Shown here piece by piece: positions 331-20,524 of a stretch of DNA of 23,603 nt (the first letter of the stretch is position 1; each line of letters begins with the position of its first letter). The stretch lies in IMG/VR virus record IMGVR_UViG_3300042691_023995, positions 64,001 to 87,603 of that record. One strand, written 5' to 3'. This stretch comes from a virus. Taxonomy: Duplodnaviria > Heunggongvirae > Uroviricota > Caudoviricetes > Crassvirales. The position numbers and the translations under genes are program-made. The notes beneath the pieces are model-generated. The model worked only from the letters and a program-made list of their open reading frames with translations, was not told the origin of the DNA and ran no database searches.

Positions 331-349
331 AAAACAATAGGTATATTTG
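318..349 (+). promoter_or_regulatory. Bacteroidota primary-sigma promoter: TTTG(318-321)-N20-TATATTTG(342-349)
   Basis: Exact match to the -33 TTTG and -7 TAnnTTTG consensus with 20-nt spacing, directly before the GT cluster. Confidence 0.7.
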
Positions 350-352
350 CCT

Positions 353-1012
353 ATGCGTAAAGTTCTCATAGGTACACCCTCATATGATGGGAGAATAGAT
401 GTCTGGTATGCTAATAGCTTACTGGGCACTGTTAAAATGGCTTATGAGAAGGATATATATGTCCATGCTATTTACACAAGCTATGATAGCCTCATACAAA
501 GGGCTAGAAATAGCCTGTTTAAACTAGCTCTTACAGGTGGATATGATGATTTGTTCTTTATAGACTCAGATGCTGAATGGGAACCAGAATGGTTCTTCAG
601 GCTTTTGGAAAGACCAGAACCTATTGTAGGAGGGGCATTGGTTAAGAAGAGTGATGATAACGAGGGGTACACAGTGAAACTGATGGATAAAAACCTGAAG
701 TGGTCCAAGGATAAGAAGATAATAGAGGTGGATGGTGTAGGTACAGGCTTCCTAAAGGTGAACAGGTTTGCTCTGGAGAAACTATGGGAGATGTCTGATA
801 AGTATACATCTGAGGGTGAGGAGCACAGAATGATATGTGATATAAAGGTGGAGAACGGTGACCTAATATCTGAAGACTACATCCTCTGTAACAAGTGGAA
901 ATCATTAGGATATAAGGTGTGGCTAGATCCAACTATAACACTCAACCACATAGGAACTAGGAAATACAAGGGTGATTTCCAATCCTTTATAAAGAAACAC
1001 GGGTATGTTTGA
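353..1012 (+). CDS. GT-A fold glycosyltransferase-like protein (phage GT2-like family)
   Basis: KVLIGTPSY, SLIQRARN, LFFIDSD (DxD), VGTGF, SEDY..C, and a C-terminal LNHIG. ATG at 353 is preferred over the TTG at 347, which lies inside the -7 box. Confidence 0.75.
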   Translation: MRKVLIGTPSYDGRIDVWYANSLLGTVKMAYEKDIYVHAIYTSYDSLIQRARNSLFKLALTGGYDDLFFIDSDAEWEPEWFFRLLERPEPIVGGALVKKSDDNEGYTVKLMDKNLKWSKDKKIIEVDGVGTGFLKVNRFALEKLWEMSDKYTSEGEEHRMICDIKVENGDLISEDYILCNKWKSLGYKVWLDPTITLNHIGTRKYKGDFQSFIKKHGYV

Positions 1013-1916
1013 TAAACCAATGGGAGGTACAGAGCTTATGTATAATGAGCTCATGAAGAGATTACCAGAAGAATATAAGGACAAGTGGTCCATATTTAAC
1101 TACATAGGAGATGCTGATTTTAAAAAGCCAACCATCTATTGGAACCAGCTAAGCTATGATCAACAGGCTGTACAATGGCTAAGAGATCCTAAGAACATTG
1201 AAGCTATTGATCAGTTTGTATTTATAAGTCACTGGCAATCAGAATGTTATAGAAAACTATTCAATATTCCTGGATACAAAACTTCTGTTATAAAGAATGC
1301 TTGTATTGGTGTAGAACCACGTAAACCAGGAGAAAGAGAAATAGTGAGGCTTTGTTATACATCCACACCCTTCAGAGGACTTGATGTTCTTCTAAAGGCA
1401 TGGGACATACTTAAGCCTAAGGGATGTGAGCTACATGTTTTCTCTAGCTGTAAAATATATGGAGAAGACTATGCTTCCACAGAAGATCCTAAATATACAG
1501 ACTTGTACAACGCCTGTCTAAACACAGAGGGTATTGTGTACAGAGGATCTATTCCTAATGAGGAGCTGAGGAAAGAACTTCCCAGCTTTGACATCCTAGC
1601 CTATCCCTGTACATTTGAGGAAACCTCTTGTATAGCTGTGATAGAAGCTCTGTCAGCTGGACTAAAGGTAGTGACAAGTAATATAGGCGCTCTACCTGAA
1701 ACTACAGAAGGATGGGCTACCATATATCCCTACCTAATGGATAAGGATAGACATGCTGAAGCATTTGCCTCCATCCTCAAGAAGGAAATAGATGCTGTCA
1801 AAACTGGCATGCATCTAGAGGAACAAGTGAACATATATGCTCCTAGATGGAGCTGGGACAACAGAATAAACCAATGGACAAACTATTTAGACACATTAAC
1901 CCCAAGAGAGCCCTAG
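1005..1916 (+). CDS. GT4-family (GT-B) glycosyltransferase
   Basis: PMGGTEL N-terminal loop, YTSTPFRGL, ILAYPCTFEETSCIAVIEALSAG (E-x7-E), TSNIGALPE. Confidence 0.85.
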   Translation: MFDKPMGGTELMYNELMKRLPEEYKDKWSIFNYIGDADFKKPTIYWNQLSYDQQAVQWLRDPKNIEAIDQFVFISHWQSECYRKLFNIPGYKTSVIKNACIGVEPRKPGEREIVRLCYTSTPFRGLDVLLKAWDILKPKGCELHVFSSCKIYGEDYASTEDPKYTDLYNACLNTEGIVYRGSIPNEELRKELPSFDILAYPCTFEETSCIAVIEALSAGLKVVTSNIGALPETTEGWATIYPYLMDKDRHAEAFASILKKEIDAVKTGMHLEEQVNIYAPRWSWDNRINQWTNYLDTLTPREP

Positions 1917-2476
1917 ACATAGGAGCACATGTGGGCAACTTCACAAAGGAACTCTATTACAGATTTCCTGAGTGTAGAGTGGTTATGATAGAGGCTAACA
2001 AGAACTGTGAGCCCCATCTAAGACTATTGGGAAAGCCCTATGAGATTGTAGCTCTGTCTGATAAAAATGGAACAGCTGAGCTCTATATGGAGGATGGCAA
2101 TCCCATAGGTACAGGTAGTTCCTTGTATAGGGAGAACACGCAGTGGTATACACAGGGTAAAACCCAGACAGTGGTGACAAAGCGTCTAGATGATTGTAAC
2201 TATTTCAATGGAGAACACCCTGATTTCATCAAGATGGATGTGCAGGGTTCTGAATTAGACATAATAAAAGGTGGTGAGAATACAATAAAAAATGCTACCT
2301 TTGTGTTAATGGAAACCTCTCTGTTAGAATATAACCAGGGAGCTCCTTTGATAGATGCATTAGTGGAGAAAATGGTGGACCTCCAGTTCTGCATGATTGA
2401 CATTGTTGAATACCACCGCTTAGAAAACGGACTTATTTTTCAACTAGATATATTATTTAAAAACTTAAAACAATAA
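1874..2476 (+). CDS. FkbM-family SAM-dependent methyltransferase
   Basis: ALDIGAHVG (motif I), VVMIEAN, DFIKMDVQGSELDIIKGG. ATG at 1874 (MDKLFRH) is preferred over 1847 and overlaps the GT4 end by 43 nt. Confidence 0.88.
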   Translation: MDKLFRHINPKRALDIGAHVGNFTKELYYRFPECRVVMIEANKNCEPHLRLLGKPYEIVALSDKNGTAELYMEDGNPIGTGSSLYRENTQWYTQGKTQTVVTKRLDDCNYFNGEHPDFIKMDVQGSELDIIKGGENTIKNATFVLMETSLLEYNQGAPLIDALVEKMVDLQFCMIDIVEYHRLENGLIFQLDILFKNLKQ

Positions 2477-2482
2477 GAAGCC

Positions 2483-2833
2483 ATGAAAATGCTTTTTGCA
2501 AAGATTAATCCCGTTGCTGAAATTCCTGAAATGGAATCTCCTTTCCAGTATGATGTTAAACAAGCTGACTATCTTACAGCTGTAGCATCTCCTTATCGCT
2601 TGGGTGCTGAAGAAGTGAACTTTAGCCTCATCTATGGCACTGCTACATTTGATGCTGAAGGAAACATGGAAACATTTACACGCTTATTGGGTGGATCGCT
2701 TACATTAGGTGCTCCTTACATTCAGCAGTGGGGATTGGATGATTCTGTAATTCTTGGAACTATTTGTGAGCAAGTGGGAACAGAAGCTGTTGAATTCATT
2801 GAGGGTGACCCAAAGAACTTCAACCCATTCTAA
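2483..2833 (+). CDS. Hypothetical acidic protein, possibly virion/tail-associated
   Basis: 116-aa ORF with an A-rich leader (aaaaacttaaaacaataagaagccATG). No recognisable motif. Confidence 0.6.
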   Translation: MKMLFAKINPVAEIPEMESPFQYDVKQADYLTAVASPYRLGAEEVNFSLIYGTATFDAEGNMETFTRLLGGSLTLGAPYIQQWGLDDSVILGTICEQVGTEAVEFIEGDPKNFNPF

Positions 2834-2858: not shown

Positions 2859-3680
2859 ATGGTCAAAAAGATATTCTACAACAGCTCTCTACCTAGAGCT
2901 GGAAGTACACTTATTCAGAATATTCTAGCACAGAATCCAGAGATACATTCCACTCCCACCTCTGGCATCTTTGAGATGTACATGCAAGCTCGTACCTATT
3001 TCTCTAATGGGTTAGAGTTTAAGGCACAAGATCAAAATCTCATGGAAGCAGGGTTTAAGGGAATGCTTAAAGATGGACTCTATGGATTCTATAATGCTGT
3101 AACAGACCGTCCATATGTGATGGAAAAGTCTAGGGGTTGGGCAATGGAGCGTGATTTTATTCATGCCTTTGATCCCAACCCCAAGATTATTTGTATGATA
3201 AGGGACATTCGTGCTATCTATTCTTCTCTAGAAAAGAAGTATAGAAACAATCCTTTAGTGGACACAAACATTGCTAACTGGGGTAATCTAACAGGCACCA
3301 CCACAGATAAGCGTATGGTGGTGTGGTCCAACAACCCTCCTATAGGTCCATCTCTGGACCGTTTGTATCAGACACTTGTAGCTGGTACACATCAACACAT
3401 CCTATTTATTAAATTTGAAGAGCTATGCCTAGATCCTGATACACAACTAAGACGTGTGTATGAGTATTTAGAGCTTCCCTATTTTCAGCATGATTTCAAA
3501 AACATACCACAGTATTCTATAGAGGATGACAAATGGTATGGTATATTTGGTGACCACATCATCCGTGGAGAGTTAAAGCCTGTAAAAGATGACTTCCGTG
3601 AGGTGCTCGGTCCTAATGCATGCAAGATAATAGAGGAAGGCTACCCATGGTTCTTCAATGATTTTGGATATAAAATATAA
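2859..3680 (+). CDS. PAPS-dependent sulfotransferase
   Basis: 5'-PSB loop SSLPRAGSTL, EKSRGW, 3'-PB motif IICMIRDIRAIYSSL, FIKFEELCLDP, VYEYLEL. Confidence 0.88.
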   Translation: MVKKIFYNSSLPRAGSTLIQNILAQNPEIHSTPTSGIFEMYMQARTYFSNGLEFKAQDQNLMEAGFKGMLKDGLYGFYNAVTDRPYVMEKSRGWAMERDFIHAFDPNPKIICMIRDIRAIYSSLEKKYRNNPLVDTNIANWGNLTGTTTDKRMVVWSNNPPIGPSLDRLYQTLVAGTHQHILFIKFEELCLDPDTQLRRVYEYLELPYFQHDFKNIPQYSIEDDKWYGIFGDHIIRGELKPVKDDFREVLGPNACKIIEEGYPWFFNDFGYKI

Positions 3681-3684
3681 ACCA

Positions 3685-4638
3685 ATGAACGTAGGATATA
3701 AGACAGAAGAGGAATTGCAAAAGGATGAGAAGCTGACAGTGTTAGAAGATCGTTCTTCAGACAGCAATAAGTATGTTGTATGGCATATAGAAGGTGGGCT
3801 GGGAAAGAACATAGCAGCTACATCCATTATAAAGGATGTGAAGGAAAGATATTCAGATAGGAAACTCATCATGGTGGTGTCCTATCCTGAGATATTCCTA
3901 AACAACCCTAACATACACAGGGTGTACAGGGTGGGCATGACCTCCTATTTCTATGATGACTACATCAAGGATAAGGACACTATTATATTCCGTCATGAAC
4001 CTTATTTCCAGAGTGATCACATCCTAAAGAAGAAACATCTGATACACAACTGGTGTGATTTGATGGATGTAGAATACAAAGATCAACTTCCTCAGTTTCA
4101 TCCTAACGCTGTGCAGAAAATGTTACAATACAACTGGCAGAGAGAAAAACCTGTCATGGTGATACAGACAAATGGAGGAGGTATGGGTAATGAGTTCTCT
4201 TATGCTTGGTCAAGAGATATGCCTTATGAAATAGCTGTTGCTGTTGCTGATAGATATAGAAACACCCATCATATTATACAGGTGACAAGACCTAACACCA
4301 ATCTTATTCCTAATGTGGAATATGTCACCCAACAGCTTAGCAACTTTGAAATGTTGTCTATTCTAGCTGTTTCTCAGAAGCGTGTGTTAATAGATTCCTT
4401 CTTACAGCATGCTGCTGCAGGTATGGGACTTCCTTCTACGGTGCTATGGATAGGCACATCTCCTATCAACTTTGGATACAAGATGCACAACAACATTGTT
4501 GCTAAAGATCCTCCAGGCAGCACTAAGCTTATAGACAGCTACATCTTTGACTATTCACTTGAAGGGTCAATTCATGAGTGTCCATATAACAGCGTAGAAG
4601 AAATGTTTGACATTAACACCATCTTTAAGAGTATATGA
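3685..4638 (+). CDS. GT9-like (heptosyltransferase-type, GT-B) glycosyltransferase
   Basis: HIEGGLGKNIAAT, YPEIFLNNPNI, LIDSFLQHAAAGMGLPSTVLW, FGYKMHNNI. ATG at 3685 follows the upstream stop at 3680; the track start at 3658 overlaps that gene. Confidence 0.72.
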   Translation: MNVGYKTEEELQKDEKLTVLEDRSSDSNKYVVWHIEGGLGKNIAATSIIKDVKERYSDRKLIMVVSYPEIFLNNPNIHRVYRVGMTSYFYDDYIKDKDTIIFRHEPYFQSDHILKKKHLIHNWCDLMDVEYKDQLPQFHPNAVQKMLQYNWQREKPVMVIQTNGGGMGNEFSYAWSRDMPYEIAVAVADRYRNTHHIIQVTRPNTNLIPNVEYVTQQLSNFEMLSILAVSQKRVLIDSFLQHAAAGMGLPSTVLWIGTSPINFGYKMHNNIVAKDPPGSTKLIDSYIFDYSLEGSIHECPYNSVEEMFDINTIFKSI

Positions 4639-5093
4639 TTATAGTTCTTTTTGGACAGCCACACAGTGGCAAGTCCACAATAGCTAATGAAATCCTAGCA
4701 CACACTACATCCTTTGTAAACATAGATGGGGATAAGCTCAGAGAGCTGTTTGTTAATAAAGACTACTCTAGAGAGGGTAGAATAAAGAACCTGAACAGGG
4801 CTAGTGATATTGCTCACTTCCTAAACTCTACAGGGACAAACGTCATCCTCTCTCTTGTCTATCCTTATAAGGAAGCCAGAGACTATCTCAATAACCTTAC
4901 AAAGGATGTCATATGGGTGTATTTAACATACACAGGAGAAAGAGGAAGAGAGGGTTTTCATGTACAAGATTTTGACTATCCTGTAGAAGAAGATGTTTTG
5001 AATATTAACACATCTTCTGTATCTTTGGAATATTGTATGCAAATTATAAACAACTACATAGATGCAAAACGTTCTAGCAAAAGCAGCAAGTAA
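4635..5093 (+). CDS. cysC: Adenylylsulfate (APS) kinase
   Basis: P-loop LFGQPHSGKST, IDGDKLR, DYSREGRIKN, VILSLVYPY. ATGA coupling to the upstream gene. Confidence 0.8.
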   Translation: MIIVLFGQPHSGKSTIANEILAHTTSFVNIDGDKLRELFVNKDYSREGRIKNLNRASDIAHFLNSTGTNVILSLVYPYKEARDYLNNLTKDVIWVYLTYTGERGREGFHVQDFDYPVEEDVLNINTSSVSLEYCMQIINNYIDAKRSSKSSK

Positions 5094-5448
5094 GTCAGGA
5101 CAATGGGCCATGTTTATTGGAAGATGGCAACCTTGGCATGCTGGTCACAGATGGTTAATTGATCAAGCCCTTAACGAGGGTAAGAAGGTGTTGCTCTGTA
5201 TAAGAGAAGTGGAACCAGATGAAAAGAATCCCTGGACACCACATCAGGTTATGATGACACTTGCTAATGAATTGAATGGCCTTATACAAGAGGGCAAGTT
5301 GAGGATAATGACCATCCCTGATATTGAATCTATTAACATTGGTAGAGGTGTGGGTTATGATGTTATAGAACATGTTCCTCCTGCAGAAATACATGATATA
5401 TCTGCTACAAAGATTAGAGAGAATATGAAAAGGGAGGGTAGATTATGA
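5062..5448 (+). CDS. Small HxGH nucleotidyltransferase (cytidylyltransferase-like fold)
   Basis: FIGRWQPWHAGH, KNPWT, ISATKIR (KMSKS-equivalent). Confidence 0.8.
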   Translation: MQNVLAKAASKSGQWAMFIGRWQPWHAGHRWLIDQALNEGKKVLLCIREVEPDEKNPWTPHQVMMTLANELNGLIQEGKLRIMTIPDIESINIGRGVGYDVIEHVPPAEIHDISATKIRENMKREGRL

Positions 5449-5669
5449 TAGTAGAAAGAAAACGACACATAGCTAAGACTATAAGCTACCGTCTTATTAG
5501 CACACTGATTGGTGTACTCACTATGTTTATTGTAACAGGATCTATGAAAGCAGGCGCTGCATTTGGTGTAGCTGAGCTGTTATGGAAACCCATACAATAC
5601 TACATCCACGAACGTATATGGTATAAGTGGATTAGATATGGCCTAAAAGGGCAAAAACAACCTGACTAG
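5445..5669 (+). CDS. DUF2061-like small membrane protein
   Basis: RHIAKTISYRL, two hydrophobic segments, YYIHERIW. ATGA-coupled to the nucleotidyltransferase. Confidence 0.75.
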   Translation: MIVERKRHIAKTISYRLISTLIGVLTMFIVTGSMKAGAAFGVAELLWKPIQYYIHERIWYKWIRYGLKGQKQPD

Positions 5670-8600
5670 CATCTATCTTCTGGTGGCATTCAAACTGCCT
5701 ATCTGTTCCCTTGTGTTCAGGACACCAGTTCCAATCTCCTGGGTCAAACCTATATTCAGCCTTGTTCCAGCATCCGTGGCATACATTCTTGTTGTCAATC
5801 CTGATGCATTCAAACTCATGATCTGCTTCTGTGAAGTTGCTTATCATCATCACCTTCTTGTTAAGAGCCCAGGCTAACCAGCTAAGTCCGCTGGACAGTC
5901 CTATGAATATCTTACTGTGATGGATGACATTCATAGTGTTCTCTATGGATGTATCCTCTATCTGTTCGCAGTGATCAAAAGGATTCTTCTCCTTAGATAC
6001 ATTTATCACCTTGTATCCTTTCTCATGCAGGAAGTCAATCACTAATTGCCAGCCTTCTTTGGTCCAGAACTTACAGCCTGATGTAGAGTTGGTGGCTATT
6101 GTAACATATTTACCATATAAATTGTTACCAATTTGGTAACTGATTCTTGGTTTAATCTCTTGGTAATCAAGACCTAATATGTTACTTGCTGCTTTCTGGA
6201 GGGGGATGGTGTTACAAAGCTCAGGCTCCTTGTCTGGATTGTAAAACCAACCTATGCTATACATACCAAGGATGCCCTCAGCCTTCTGACCAGGTTCAAT
6301 AAACTCAAGCTCTGGATAGACATCTTTGAAGAGGAAGTTCTTGAACGTGCTCACTATCACATGGCAGTTGTGCTTCTTCTTAAACTCTAATACATATGGC
6401 ATCCAGGCTATAGTATCTCCTAATGACTTGCTGTCAAACGCTATGTACACACGCTTACCTGTATAGTCTAGGGTGTATTCGTAATAAGGCTCTTCATCTT
6501 TCCATATCTTAATGGTCCACTTAGTATACCACCTCCTATTGAGCTTAACCCAGTTCTGGACACCTATTGTGTTTCTGTAATGACACACACCCTCCTCATC
6601 GAGATATTCCACTCTAAACTTGCTCTTGGACCTTCCCTTGATTTCAAGGAACGGTTCTAATATAAAATTGTGATCAATTGTCACATGTTCATCAGATTGT
6701 ACAACATCTTGTACAACTTTCTGATAGATGGCAAGATGTGTAAGAGCAAACTCAAGCTCCTGATTCTCAGGGATATCGTATTTCTTTGGATTGCTCAGCT
6801 GCTCATACACTTGTTCCTTCAGCTTAGCTGGGTCCAAATCGGTAATATATTTCGTAAACATGTCTCCATATTGAGGAAGATTCCTGGCAATGATGGGTAG
6901 ACCATGGCCTATTGCTTCTCTAATCACCAGAGGATTACACTCAAATGTGCTGTTGAACAGGAACAAATCAGCTCCTGCCATGAAATCAGCTACATCATTA
7001 CGCTCTCCCAATACATGTACATTAGGAGGAAGATCTTTCATCAGGGGCTCCCAGTAGTGCTGGAAGTTACCAGCTTGGTTACCTACAAAGTGAAACTGTA
7101 CATCTGGCATCTGTCTAGCTAGCTCTACAGCTTCTCCTTGGTTCTTGCCAGGAGTCCACAGTCCTACATTCAGAACATGTTTCCCTTGTCCAAAATGTAC
7201 AGGTGTAGCCTCCTTCTTCTCAATAGGATGTTCCACTACATACTTAGGAGAAGGCATGTTTGCAAATGTCTTCAGATGATGTGGTGTGCAGAACATGTAG
7301 CTATCTGGATGAAAGCGCTTCTCAATGTCTGGCTTGAATATAATGTTGTGACATGTCTCAATCATCCTCCAGGTTCTGTTTGGAGCATACAAAGCTTCTC
7401 TCAGGGATTCTGGCCAGTTGTTCCAGCCATCTTCTACCATCTCTTCCACATGTACAACATCAATCCTATTATTCCTGATGATGTCTATCAGCTCCATCTT
7501 GTTCTCTCCCAGTGTCCAGAAGTGACTCACCAGCTTTTTTATCTGGTCTTTCTGTACAACAAAGTGATCGCTGTGATTGGAGTATTCCACAACATAGATG
7601 TCTACATTGGTGTGCGCTTGCAAAGCCTGAATTCTTCTCAAGAGGAAGGCAGGCATTCCGCCTGTGGATAGATGTGGTGCCACAAACAACACTCGTAAAT
7701 GTTCCTTCTGACGCTCAACCATCTTACGCATTACATCCTTGTTCTTTTCCCCGTGGTAGAATAATAAATCATCTACTGAAGCTGGTGTAGCTAGAAAATG
7801 ACCTATATGTTTCTTGTACCCAGCAAACTCCACATTGTTCACCCTGTCCAAAGATCCATTCATGTATATGTAAGGAAGTCCTTTTAGGTAGCTATGCTTC
7901 CACAGAAGCACATTTGCTATTGTTTCCTCGTGGTATGGAGCATAATATTGTGGATTCTGCAGAATCTTTGGATGGTTGCACATCCAAATCCACTCATCTA
8001 GAAAGTCTATGCACCACTGTCCAGCTACAAAGTATCCTGTCTGTCTGTATTTATCTCGTACATATTGGTTTACACCAAACAACTCACAGGCTGGATGTTC
8101 AAGCGTGGTGGATAGGTCATCTCTACTCTCAGCCCCACCTCTGCCATTGTTAATCATCCACTCGTATATCCCTTCTGTGAAATATGGATAGGGGGATTTA
8201 GCTGGGAATAGGTCAAACATCCTGTCTACATATCTGGTGGCCACACTGTCAGCATCTACATATACCACTGTCTTAGCAAGACTGAGCGCATCTTTAACAA
8301 TAGCTGGACGCTGTATTAAGATTTTATATATGTCACTGCTAGCCCTGTCAATATACTCACCCTGAGCAGGGTTCTCAACATCACATTCCCAGTTGATAGT
8401 GATGGCTCCTGGTACATCTGCATTTGAGTTAAGAAGGTAGACAAATATGGCAACATTGCTATGTACTCTAATAGAAGCTACACATCCCTCGATGGTATCA
8501 CGGTAGCTCTCAGTTCCATATATGACATAAGCCCTATTCAACCTGGGGTCCTCGTTAACGTAATACCCATACCAATCATTGGTGTACAGAGGAACAAGTC

Positions 8601-9051
8601 CTGGGTAGCGCTCTTTCATTACATCTGGAGTGAGATCTGGCTGAAGATGGGTTTCGTAGGTGTTCCCATATTCCTCCCCATCCTGTTCCATAGTGTAGGG
8701 GATGGCCACAAGAAAGTGCTTACCGTGGAAATGCATAGCATTTATAAGACGCTTAGCATCTTCTTTTCCTAGGTGTTCTAGGACATCTCCCAGTATAATG
8801 AAGTCATAATCTGTCCAGTTAAACTCAACGATGTTCTCAATGTAAACATTGTCATATTTATTTCTCAGGCTAAATTGGTCTACATAGGGAGCCCACACCT
8901 CTACAGCATCCATCCTATATCCTAAATTCCTTAGCAAATCTGAATAAGTGCCCTGCCCAGGACCTACATCTAGGATACGTGTACTAAGGGGAACATTGTC
9001 TATAAACCACTGTTTTATCTCAGACTTGAAATAGGAATAGCTGTTGGGCAT
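5632..9051 (-). CDS. Four-domain enzyme: class I methyltransferase + GT-A + GT4 + autotransporter strand-loop-strand O-heptosyltransferase (TibC/Aah-like)
   Basis: ILDVGPGQG and GDVLEHL (methyltransferase); VVYVDADS (DxD, GT-A); FVAPHLSTGGMP, GKNQ, FECNPLVIREA (GT4); SKSLGDTIAW, FIGLSSGLSWLAWA, VCHGCWN..WCP..QFEC (four Cys typical of the TibC/Aah family). Confidence 0.85.
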   Translation of the reverse strand: MPNSYSYFKSEIKQWFIDNVPLSTRILDVGPGQGTYSDLLRNLGYRMDAVEVWAPYVDQFSLRNKYDNVYIENIVEFNWTDYDFIILGDVLEHLGKEDAKRLINAMHFHGKHFLVAIPYTMEQDGEEYGNTYETHLQPDLTPDVMKERYPGLVPLYTNDWYGYYVNEDPRLNRAYVIYGTESYRDTIEGCVASIRVHSNVAIFVYLLNSNADVPGAITINWECDVENPAQGEYIDRASSDIYKILIQRPAIVKDALSLAKTVVYVDADSVATRYVDRMFDLFPAKSPYPYFTEGIYEWMINNGRGGAESRDDLSTTLEHPACELFGVNQYVRDKYRQTGYFVAGQWCIDFLDEWIWMCNHPKILQNPQYYAPYHEETIANVLLWKHSYLKGLPYIYMNGSLDRVNNVEFAGYKKHIGHFLATPASVDDLLFYHGEKNKDVMRKMVERQKEHLRVLFVAPHLSTGGMPAFLLRRIQALQAHTNVDIYVVEYSNHSDHFVVQKDQIKKLVSHFWTLGENKMELIDIIRNNRIDVVHVEEMVEDGWNNWPESLREALYAPNRTWRMIETCHNIIFKPDIEKRFHPDSYMFCTPHHLKTFANMPSPKYVVEHPIEKKEATPVHFGQGKHVLNVGLWTPGKNQGEAVELARQMPDVQFHFVGNQAGNFQHYWEPLMKDLPPNVHVLGERNDVADFMAGADLFLFNSTFECNPLVIREAIGHGLPIIARNLPQYGDMFTKYITDLDPAKLKEQVYEQLSNPKKYDIPENQELEFALTHLAIYQKVVQDVVQSDEHVTIDHNFILEPFLEIKGRSKSKFRVEYLDEEGVCHYRNTIGVQNWVKLNRRWYTKWTIKIWKDEEPYYEYTLDYTGKRVYIAFDSKSLGDTIAWMPYVLEFKKKHNCHVIVSTFKNFLFKDVYPELEFIEPGQKAEGILGMYSIGWFYNPDKEPELCNTIPLQKAASNILGLDYQEIKPRISYQIGNNLYGKYVTIATNSTSGCKFWTKEGWQLVIDFLHEKGYKVINVSKEKNPFDHCEQIEDTSIENTMNVIHHSKIFIGLSSGLSWLAWALNKKVMMISNFTEADHEFECIRIDNKNVCHGCWNKAEYRFDPGDWNWCPEHKGTDRQFECHQKIDASQVVFALLGHI

Positions 9052-10214: not shown

Positions 10215-10682
10215 ATGCAGATTTCAAAACACCTATCTCTAGCTGAGGTGAGCAGAAGTGAAACCGCTAAGCGTAAGGGTATCAACAACACTCCCTCTGG
10301 AGAACATCTGGAGAACTTCAAGAAGTTGGCTGAGAACATATTTGAGCCTATTCGTGAGCACTTTGCTGTGCCTATCCACATTAGTTCTGGCTACAGAAGT
10401 AAGGAGCTTAATGCTTCTATTGGTGGGGCTTCTAGCTCTCAACACTGCTCTGGTGAGGCAATTGATATCGATATGGATGGTTCATCATCTGGCGTATCTA
10501 ACGCAGATGTGTTTAAATACATTAAGGACAATCTGAACTTTGACCAGCTCATCTGGGAATTTGGTTCAGATAGCAACCCTGACTGGGTGCATGTATCTTA
10601 TGAGGCCACTGGTAAGCAGCGCAAGCAGATCTTGAAGGCTGTTAAGTCTGGTGGTAAGACGTCTTACGTACCCTTTAAATAA
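10215..10682 (+). CDS. Endolysin, peptidase M15A (Zn D-Ala-D-Ala peptidase fold)
   Basis: ISSGYRS, SQH..GEAIDI (H-x6-D), FDQLIWE, WVHVSY. Confidence 0.88.
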   Translation: MQISKHLSLAEVSRSETAKRKGINNTPSGEHLENFKKLAENIFEPIREHFAVPIHISSGYRSKELNASIGGASSSQHCSGEAIDIDMDGSSSGVSNADVFKYIKDNLNFDQLIWEFGSDSNPDWVHVSYEATGKQRKQILKAVKSGGKTSYVPFK

Positions 10683-19891: not shown

Positions 19892-20524
19892 ATGGTAAAA
19901 CTAACATGTATATGTCCTGTGTGGAAAAGACCACAGAGGACCATTAGAGCAATAGAATCTGTTGTAGCCCAGAAGTTTGATGGCTATGAGGCATTGTTCA
20001 TAGGTGACAGATGTCCAGAGTTTCAAAAACATCTGGACGCTGGTACATTTAAGAAATACGAAGAACAAGTGGCTGCTACAGGTAACAAGATATTATTCCA
20101 TAATATGGATGAACATTATGGGGGCTGGGGACATGGTGCACGTAAGTACGGCATTGATATAGCTCAGGGAGAATACATATGCTTCCTGGACAATGATGAT
20201 GTTCTCAAGCCCAACCATTTTGCTAACTATTATGGATTCATGCAAGAGAACCCAGACATTCATGTAGGTTATTTCAATGCACGTACAGAGCCCTGGAAAA
20301 AGAACAGAGTTTCTTGTCTATCCAGAGGAGGCATTGGAAACGCAGAATTAATGATAAAGACAGATGTTCTTAAGAAGAACTATAGACTAGATCCAGAATA
20401 TGAACATGACTGGAGACTAGTGGAGAGAATGTTAAACTACGGATATAAGTTCAAAAAGAGCACAGCAGCTCCTACATATATAATAATGAGTATTCCTAAC
20501 TATCGAGAAACCACAATTGACTGA
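19892..20524 (+). CDS. GT2-family glycosyltransferase
   Basis: LTCICPVWKR, AIESVVAQ, ARKYG...AQGEYICFLDNDD, HDWRL. Confidence 0.85.
   Translation: MVKLTCICPVWKRPQRTIRAIESVVAQKFDGYEALFIGDRCPEFQKHLDAGTFKKYEEQVAATGNKILFHNMDEHYGGWGHGARKYGIDIAQGEYICFLDNDDVLKPNHFANYYGFMQENPDIHVGYFNARTEPWKKNRVSCLSRGGIGNAELMIKTDVLKKNYRLDPEYEHDWRLVERMLNYGYKFKKSTAAPTYIIMSIPNYRETTID

Follow-up and report, generated by a model that had tools for sequence, protein, structure and literature searches.

We analyzed the terminal 23.6 kb (23,603 nucleotides, hereafter the window) of an 87,603-bp IMG/VR record of a freshwater virus assigned to Crassvirales (IMGVR_UViG_3300042691_023995; completeness 76% by CheckV), where five plus-strand open reading frames (ORFs) between positions 2859 and 5669 encode a sulfotransferase, a 326-residue protein, an adenosine 5'-phosphosulfate (APS) kinase-like protein, a 128-residue HxGH nucleotidyltransferase and a DUF2061 protein (Table 1). 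Comparative genomics suggests that the small nucleotidyltransferase is probably a minimal, non-orthologous ATP sulfurylase that feeds the APS kinase, the two forming a compact module for making 3'-phosphoadenosine 5'-phosphosulfate (PAPS). To our knowledge, every known ATP sulfurylase is of either the Sat or the CysDN kind, and genome-based prediction of sulfate activation relies on these. We found no description in the literature of this nucleotidyltransferase family as a sulfurylase, and judging from sequence and gene context we think it likely that it constitutes a candidate new enzyme family for a known reaction.

In the proposed pathway, the nucleotidyltransferase would adenylylate sulfate (ATP + sulfate -> APS + pyrophosphate (PPi)), and the APS-kinase-like protein would phosphorylate the 3'-OH of APS (APS + ATP -> PAPS + ADP) and thereby pull the unfavourable sulfurylase step forward. 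The sulfotransferase would then move sulfate from PAPS to a glycan built by neighbouring glycosyltransferases and methyltransferases, with the DUF2061 protein as a putative membrane partner of the module. We infer sulfate as the acceptor, the direction of the reaction, any channelling of APS and the target of sulfation from this arrangement, and the kinase would presumably act on APS as its sequence relatives do. The original prediction, made from the window sequence, had proposed the small enzyme as a stand-in for ATP sulfurylase, and as a candidate this proposal gained support from the linkage to the kinase, from fusions in both orders, from sulfur-gene neighbours and from carriers that mostly lack Sat and CysD.

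Linkage to APS kinase in viruses and cells

To describe the linkage in viruses, we used 80 IMG/VR loci anchored on the nucleotidyltransferase and 68 loci anchored on the APS-kinase-like gene. Around the nucleotidyltransferase, the kinase gene was present in 75/80 loci, with the kinase-less loci mostly at contig edges; DUF2061 was present in 66/80 and a sulfotransferase like that of the window in 38/80. Around the kinase, the nucleotidyltransferase was present in 61/68 loci, the sulfotransferase in 62/68 and DUF2061 in 60/68, and the gap from kinase to nucleotidyltransferase was usually -67 to +96 nt. Homologues of the 326-residue protein were found in 44/80 enzyme-anchored and 55/68 kinase-anchored loci. 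Co-occurrence with cysC across phages, which the original prediction had named as a check, was thus found in both sets.

The two genes are also fused. Among representatives at 50% identity, at least 15 proteins carry the kinase followed by the nucleotidyltransferase (e.g., P0179, P0212 and P0282), 8 carry the opposite order (e.g., P0195 and P0265) and 2 join the nucleotidyltransferase to DUF2061 (P0228 and P0305). DUF2061 is fused to canonical CysC in P0168 (197 bits to PF01583), in P0169 and in the gene adjoining P0216, and this fusion form can adjoin the nucleotidyltransferase. The kinase-then-transferase order is that of animal PAPS synthase and the reverse order is that of bacterial Sat-CysC; by analogy with PAPS synthase, frequent fusion to the kinase would fit a need to pull the sulfurylase equilibrium forward. 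The kinase-nucleotidyltransferase fusion also occurs in cultured Casjensviridae phages of Xylella, Xanthomonas and Stenotrophomonas as phrog_10255, which is annotated as 'adenylylsulfate kinase'. In Xylella phage Bacata (L001:3618-5381), a 192-residue protein with a weak Sulfotransfer_4 match (E 9e-4, under the cut-off) and an SLPRSRS motif is followed by a NADAR gene and then by the fusion, which offers a culturable system for the fused form.

Beyond viruses, a scan of one genome per species with a 14-sequence subset of the family alignment returned at least 548 loci, and the best 80 were examined. These belonged to Marinimicrobia, Pelagibacteraceae, Flavobacteriales, Omnitrophota, Planctomycetota, Acidobacteriota, Nitrospiraceae, the candidate phyla radiation (CPR) and archaea, and an APS-kinase-like gene was adjacent or fused in 74/80 of them, with a partner kinase that in many bacteria is 44-55% identical to canonical CysC. 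In viral and cellular loci alike, the two genes are mostly arranged end to end. Sulfotransferases were among the commonest families of the 138 nearest neighbours (Sulfotransfer_3, 7; Sulfotransfer_1, 5), and a Sulfotransfer_5 cluster lies near the nucleotidyltransferase in 7 lineages. A Sulfotransfer_1 gene follows one fusion from Planctomycetota, a CysQ-like Inositol_P gene directly follows the fusion in a metagenome-assembled genome (MAG) of Methanosarcinales, and cysD and cysN adjoin a nucleotidyltransferase-CysC fusion in an acidobacterial MAG (L109).

Two Nitrospiraceae MAGs (L114:4218-9479 and L126:4185-9493) encode, in one operon without a kinase, an Rrf2/CymR-like regulator, a sulfite reductase with a YedF-like C-terminus, an APS-type CysH (TIGR02055, 272 bits, above the cut-off), the nucleotidyltransferase and a TrpD-like protein. 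Here the nucleotidyltransferase occupies the ATP sulfurylase slot of an assimilatory operon. We find these two loci the most telling of the neighbourhoods. APS is the sole metabolite on which both APS kinase and APS reductase act, and it connects the two kinds of neighbourhood. We also considered sulfate transporters as neighbours and rejected them in both settings: ~600-residue proteins beside the fusions, taken as candidate sulfate/DASS transporters, proved to be FliK-like, Nudix-containing or BatD-like, and the Nitrospiraceae operon has a metal ABC transporter (Znu/Mnt type) in its vicinity.

The small nucleotidyltransferase and its kinase partner

The 128-residue protein carries GRWQPWHAGH and ISATKIRE, and PF01467 is its only Pfam family; the general profile TIGR00125 scored 31.2 bits, above its cut-off of 27.7. 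Profiles of nicotinamide mononucleotide adenylyltransferase (NMNAT) scored far under their cut-offs (NF002243, 35.8 versus 127 bits; TIGR01527, 29.2 versus 181.2 bits), the NCBIfam NMNAT match was restricted to residues 16-93, and HMMER alignments to the NMNAT structures 1ej2 and 1f9a ended at residue 90. The protein represents a separate, as yet unnamed branch within the HxGH superfamily and neither belongs to the Sat family nor passes as NMNAT. This family is very abundant, with 7,762 clusters at 90% identity and 1,046 representatives at 50% identity. Across 50 diverse relatives, the conserved residues were G20, R21, Q23, H26, G28, H29, R48, N56, P57, D87, G94, R95, V97, G98, Y99, S114, T116 and R119. 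The HxGH (H26-A-G-H29) and ISxTxxR (I113-S-A-T-K-I-R119) motifs are nearly invariant, and so are the family-specific R48, N56-P57, D87 and G94-R95-x-V-G-Y loop.

The AlphaFold model of the protein (pLDDT 91) matched NMNAT best in VIA-align (1f9a, Z 10.4), then phosphopantetheine adenylyltransferase (PPAT; 4nah, Z 10.0) and 2qjo/2qjt (Z 9.3-9.5). Among Sat and PAPS synthase structures, 1v47_B aligned over 114 residues (Z 7.8; root-mean-square deviation 3.6), 2gks and 1x6v gave Z 6.3 and 6.0, and 1j70, 1r6x, 4maf and 4dnx fell within Z 5.2-6.3. Against a 164-residue NMNAT chain, 110 residues of the phage protein aligned to positions 1-138, and the protein is ~40 residues shorter than archaeal NMNAT. 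It is derived from the NadM/NMNAT branch by loss of these ~40 residues and is a proposed functional analogue of Sat, not a shrunken Sat. Sulfate-activation chemistry would nevertheless be plausible for the modelled protein, which keeps HxGH and ISxTxxR, has a fold in common with Sat and has its family's own R48 and GRxVGY.

The enzyme resembles Sat, Sat-CysC and PAPS synthase in the proposed reaction, in the HxGH fold and in the adjacency to or fusion with APS kinase. Sat has the motifs QxRNPxHxxH and GRDHAG and a PUA-like N-terminal domain. The phage protein, by contrast, has no PF01747 match, has GRWQPWHAGH instead of QxRNPxHxxH and a GRxVGY loop (here GRGVGY) instead of GRDHAG, and with ~115 core residues versus ~380-400 in Sat it leaves no room for the PUA-like domain. 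With CysDN it shares the proposed reaction and the position in the pathway, and in L109 it is a neighbour of cysD and cysN; however, CysDN has an unrelated fold (a PAPS-reductase-like ATP pyrophosphatase and an EF-Tu-like GTPase), and the phage module lacks GTP coupling.

The likeness to NadM-type NMNAT (1f9a, 1ej2 and 2qjo) extends to GRxQPxHxGH, an NPW/F turn, PDIE and ISxTxxR, and the enzyme could accordingly be read as an NMN adenylyltransferase that serves the phage in NAD+ salvage or in counter-defence. NadM/NMNAT entries lead the NCBIfam, PDB and fold matches, the automatic JGI annotation names many homologues 'nicotinamide mononucleotide adenylyltransferase', and the Casjensviridae fusion adjoins a NADAR gene. 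Yet the NMNAT profile scores fall far short of the cut-offs, R48 and GRxVGY are peculiar to the family of the phage enzyme, and the sequence similarity ends at residue 90 of a protein that lacks ~40 residues; in NMNAT, the stretch past that point, beyond the DIE strand, binds nicotinamide/NMN. NAD genes were not among the top neighbour families of the sampled loci, with NADAR beside the enzyme in the Casjensviridae loci only, whereas APS kinase was nearly always there. We therefore give the NMNAT role very little credence. A role as heptose-1-phosphate adenylyltransferase (RfaE/HldC-like) was ruled out because related phages hold a separate CTP_transf_like, PfkB and epimerase set besides their homologue of the small enzyme. 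In these freshwater myophages (L008:5114-8650 and a 178.7-kb JGI contig), the ADP-heptose set, which consists of a 133-138-residue CTP_transf_like gene, a PfkB kinase and an HldD-like epimerase, is an insertion that separates the APS kinase from the small nucleotidyltransferase, and DUF2061 stays attached to the latter.

The partner kinase is by its sequence a shortened, divergent member of the APS kinase family. Its best NCBIfam match is adenylyl-sulfate kinase (5e-16), under the curated equivalog cut-off (59 versus 127), and the 18 PDB entries matched by its sequence are, without exception, APS kinases or kinase domains of PAPS synthases. GQPxxGK, DGDxxR, NxDYSxxGRxxN, SxVxP and RxR are invariant or nearly so across 48 relatives, and the kinase thus shows the APS-kinase motifs (P-loop, DGDxxR, FSxxxRxxN and (I/V)SP).

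Known ATP sulfurylases in carriers and competing explanations

If the small nucleotidyltransferase supplies APS, its carriers might be expected to dispense with the known sulfurylases. We tested 18 cellular carriers for both and found Sat in 0/18 and CysD in 1/18 (Scalindua G341), with both absent in 17/18. One of the 18, a complete 4.5-Mb Pyrinomonadaceae chromosome, has canonical CysC (137 bits) beside the nucleotidyltransferase and a sulfotransferase-like gene (26.3 bits, just below the cut-off) two genes away. Neither Sat nor CysD was found in the 3 SAR11 genomes tested or in 4 viral genomes of 118-317 kb with a completeness of 93% or more. For the virus studied here, a six-frame profile search of the whole 87,603-bp record found neither Sat (PF01747) nor PAPS_reduct/CysD (PF01507), and the controls of the PF01747 search responded; the absence of Sat and CysD that the original prediction noted for the run is thus confirmed for the entire record. 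In a sample of 61 genomes of the acidobacterial order, 25 had APS kinase, of which 21 had Sat, 4 had the nucleotidyltransferase and 0 had neither, and CysD was not found in any of the 61. These tallies include two genomes flagged as unpublished, G037 (a carrier) and G060 (Sat-positive), and leaving both out gives 20 with Sat and 3 carriers. We tested carriers directly, as 2x2 tables by phylum are underpowered with the nucleotidyltransferase in 2/151 Planctomycetota and 4/121 Marinimicrobia; 5 further cellular carriers were tested for Sat only.

Several observations weigh against a sulfurylase. By NCBIfam, PDB sequence search, Foldseek and VIA-align, the nearest relatives of the enzyme in sequence and structure are NMNAT and PPAT, not Sat; the common superfamily with Sat named in the original prediction stands. 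A known sulfurylase is present in 4/23 carriers, namely Scalindua G341 (CysD), the two Nitrospiraceae (a Sat-CysC fusion elsewhere in the genome, 587 residues long) and L109 (cysDN adjacent). The acidobacterial sample alone is not significant (P = 0.175 that all 4 carriers lack Sat if the genes are independent), and many cellular carriers are incomplete MAGs or single-amplified genomes, which makes absences in them provisional. Six related phage contigs (L179, L206, L211, L221, L239 and L241) have a sulfotransferase and an APS kinase and no small nucleotidyltransferase. In CPR loci the pair lies beside Nudix and histidine phosphatase genes. In SAR11 its neighbours are genes for enoyl-CoA hydratase and a CoA-binding protein, and the vicinity lacks a sulfotransferase. 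Sulfation alone does not account for either setting.

In SAR11 (L141-L168, Pelagibacteraceae; e.g., L149:7561-8342), a short APS-kinase-like gene and the nucleotidyltransferase occupy a syntenic core position, where glycine-cleavage-T-like genes also adjoin; strain HIMB1483 has the nucleotidyltransferase without the kinase, and HIMB2226 has a weak sulfotransferase match. In Saccharibacteria and Nomurabacteria (L124:5643-9111 and L134:3368-6229), a kinase-nucleotidyltransferase fusion follows a ~600-residue Nudix-containing protein and, in L124, precedes the histidine phosphatase gene. For the SAR11 clade, APS kinase has been noted before, with sat only in strain HTCC9565, and aprBA has been reported (PMC3448164).

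The six enzyme-less contigs had neither the small nucleotidyltransferase nor DUF2061 within 6 kb, and the family hidden Markov model found no nucleotidyltransferase in them either. Because these phages keep the sulfotransferase and the kinase without the nucleotidyltransferase, a host can supply APS, which fits an APS-supply role that some hosts can fill. Cultured cyanophages S-SKS1, S-SRM01 and S-SCSM1 (H22-H29) likewise have sulfotransferases similar to that of the window (24-30% identity) without a homologue of the small nucleotidyltransferase, and presumably draw on host PAPS. The same six contigs favour an alternative in which APS comes from host Sat or CysDN, the phage contributes just the kinase and the sulfotransferase, and the 128-residue enzyme activates some other small phosphorylated acceptor for the glycan cluster, as a TagD-like CDP-glycerol synthase or another NDP-X synthase would. 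The enzyme resembles small cytidylyltransferases in size and fold (TagD 2b7l, Z 6.7; HldC, Z 5.9; CCT, Z 7.6-7.8), and its gene is located among glycosyltransferases and methyltransferases. However, its constant partner over phages, bacteria and archaea is an APS kinase, fused in both orders, and not a glycosyltransferase; genes for APS reductase and for sulfite reductase are also seen next to it, it is present in core regions of SAR11 that lack glycan genes, and for most carriers a source of APS is not known. We consider this alternative unlikely.

A further alternative keeps the two-enzyme logic and changes the product. The enzyme and its CysC-like kinase could make a PAPS-like donor other than PAPS, a 3'-phospho-nucleoside-5'-diphospho-X, by analogy with the Campylobacter pair Cj1416/Cj1415, which makes 3'-phospho-CDP-amidate. 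A nucleotidyltransferase whose product is then phosphorylated by a 3'-kinase is common to this pair, to PAPS synthase and to CoA synthase (PPAT, then dephospho-CoA kinase (DPCK)), and PPAT is the second-best fold match of the small enzyme; the phage kinases are divergent and under the NCBIfam equivalog cut-offs, and in SAR11 and CPR the surroundings have no evident relation to sulfate. Against such a donor, the phage kinase matches APS kinases and not DPCK (TIGR00152, E 0.023), many partner kinases are near canonical CysC, and the neighbours are sulfur-metabolism genes, among them canonical PAPS-dependent sulfotransferase families, a CysQ-like gene, APS reductase and cysDN. Pfam searches of the window likewise turned up neither the glutamine kinase nor the amidohydrolase that the phosphoramidate pathway uses. 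A donor of this kind appears improbable to us.

Finally, the enzyme could handle APS in another way, either by running the reverse reaction (APS + PPi -> ATP + sulfate) or as a non-catalytic regulator of the kinase that binds APS or PAPS. Non-catalytic partners have a precedent in fungal Sat, whose regulatory domain resembles APS kinase and has no catalytic function. Sat or CysDN is also present in some carriers, and the aprBA reported in SAR11 is a possible generator of APS (PMC3448164). On the other side, HxGH and ISxTxxR are nearly invariant, and most carriers keep APS kinase and sulfotransferases without another route to APS, which leaves both variants very unlikely. The reading of the small nucleotidyltransferase as a candidate ATP sulfurylase is the one that we carry forward.

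The proposed sulfation genes in their glycan cluster and wider meaning

The five ORFs overlap successively by 23, 4, 32 and 4 nt, and the last of them, DUF2061, overlaps the 3' end of the convergent minus-strand gene by 38 nt (Table 1). ORFs and Pfam matches bear out the run of sulfotransferase, APS kinase, tiny HxGH nucleotidyltransferase and DUF2061 described in the original prediction, which had missed the 326-residue gene inside it. The same run recurs across many independent contigs and is therefore not a chance arrangement. The order of the upstream genes (347-2833) is repeated on related contigs, and the 1139-residue fusion also lies beside DUF2061 there; this fusion is part of the glycan cluster that the sulfation module would serve. 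No near-identical cultured phage emerged when the region was compared by megablast with 50,697 phage records.

Table 1 Genes of the proposed sulfation run and its glycan-building neighbours, with positions in the window.
Feature	Position	Strand	Basis or remark
GT2-like gene, weak match	347..1012	+	Pfam; upstream glycan-building gene in the same plus-strand run
GT1 gene	1005..1916	+	Pfam; upstream glycan-building gene
FkbM methyltransferase	1847..2476	+	Pfam; upstream glycan-building gene
116-residue protein without assigned family	2483..2833	+	Upstream in the same run
PAPS-dependent sulfotransferase (P0005, 273 residues)	2859..3680	+	Pfam Sulfotransfer_3 7e-19, Sulfotransfer_1 2e-11
326-residue protein (P0002), no Pfam family, GT9-like lead only	3658..4638	+	Weak phrog_8954 match
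Compact APS-kinase-like P-loop kinase (P0003, 152 residues)	4635..5093	+	PF01583 5e-13, 49.7 bits (cut-off 21.1)
HxGH nucleotidyltransferase (P0001, 128 residues), candidate ATP sulfurylase	5062..5448	+	PF01467 CTP_transf_like, 27.1 bits (cut-off 21)
DUF2061 small predicted membrane protein (P0004, 74 residues)	5445..5669	+	PF09834 4e-14
Methyltransferase-GT1-GT9 fusion (1139 residues)	5632..9051	-	Pfam; convergent on DUF2061

The sulfotransferase also matched phrog_27463 at 8e-40, and its N-terminal SLPRAGST resembles, as judged by eye, the 5'-phosphosulfate-binding loop. The 326-residue protein had no Pfam or NCBIfam match; PF01075 occurs in 45% of the members of viral clusters similar to it (Atlas feature search), a lead only, and it is possibly a GT9-like glycosyltransferase. 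Its true start may lie downstream, with JGI calls of 307-317 residues. The DUF2061 protein matched profile positions 1-51 of 52 in PF09834 (53.1 bits, cut-off 23.1), and Mesorhizobium nod loci hold DUF2061 together with nodH and nodPQ; a function as membrane tether or sulfate entry route is speculation.

A giant gene directly precedes the glycan and sulfation cluster, with its 3' end at positions 1-330 of the window; on a related contig (L003:1-5269) its product has 3951 residues and no Pfam match, and may be a fibre or other virion protein. Further along the window are an endolysin gene (10215-10682; phrog_894, and Peptidase_M15_3 on a related contig) and a GtrB-like glycosyltransferase gene (19892-20524; phrog_22739, 3e-6). 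The latter hints that the target of the cluster could be host surface glycans rather than virions, and the sulfation target, a virion glycan in the original prediction, could equally be a host surface glycan.

SAR11, small Marinimicrobia, CPR and Omnitrophota have been regarded as incapable of sulfate activation. In a wider picture, the kinase, the nucleotidyltransferase and DUF2061 would make up a complete, portable system of sulfate uptake and activation, with a third class of ATP sulfurylase and with DUF2061 as its membrane partner, either admitting sulfate or serving as a tether where glycans are exported; phages and such streamlined cells could then make PAPS. We regard this wider picture as doubtful. 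If the small nucleotidyltransferase does prove to be a sulfurylase, a third kind of ~115 residues would account for 'orphan' APS kinases and sulfotransferases in SAR11, 1-Mb Marinimicrobia, Omnitrophota, CPR, some archaea and thousands of environmental phage contigs, and metagenomic genes of the sulfur cycle and of sulfated glycans would be annotated differently. It would also provide a very small PAPS-regeneration module for biotechnology, and it would mean that phages bring their own sulfate-activation chemistry for the decoration of glycans.

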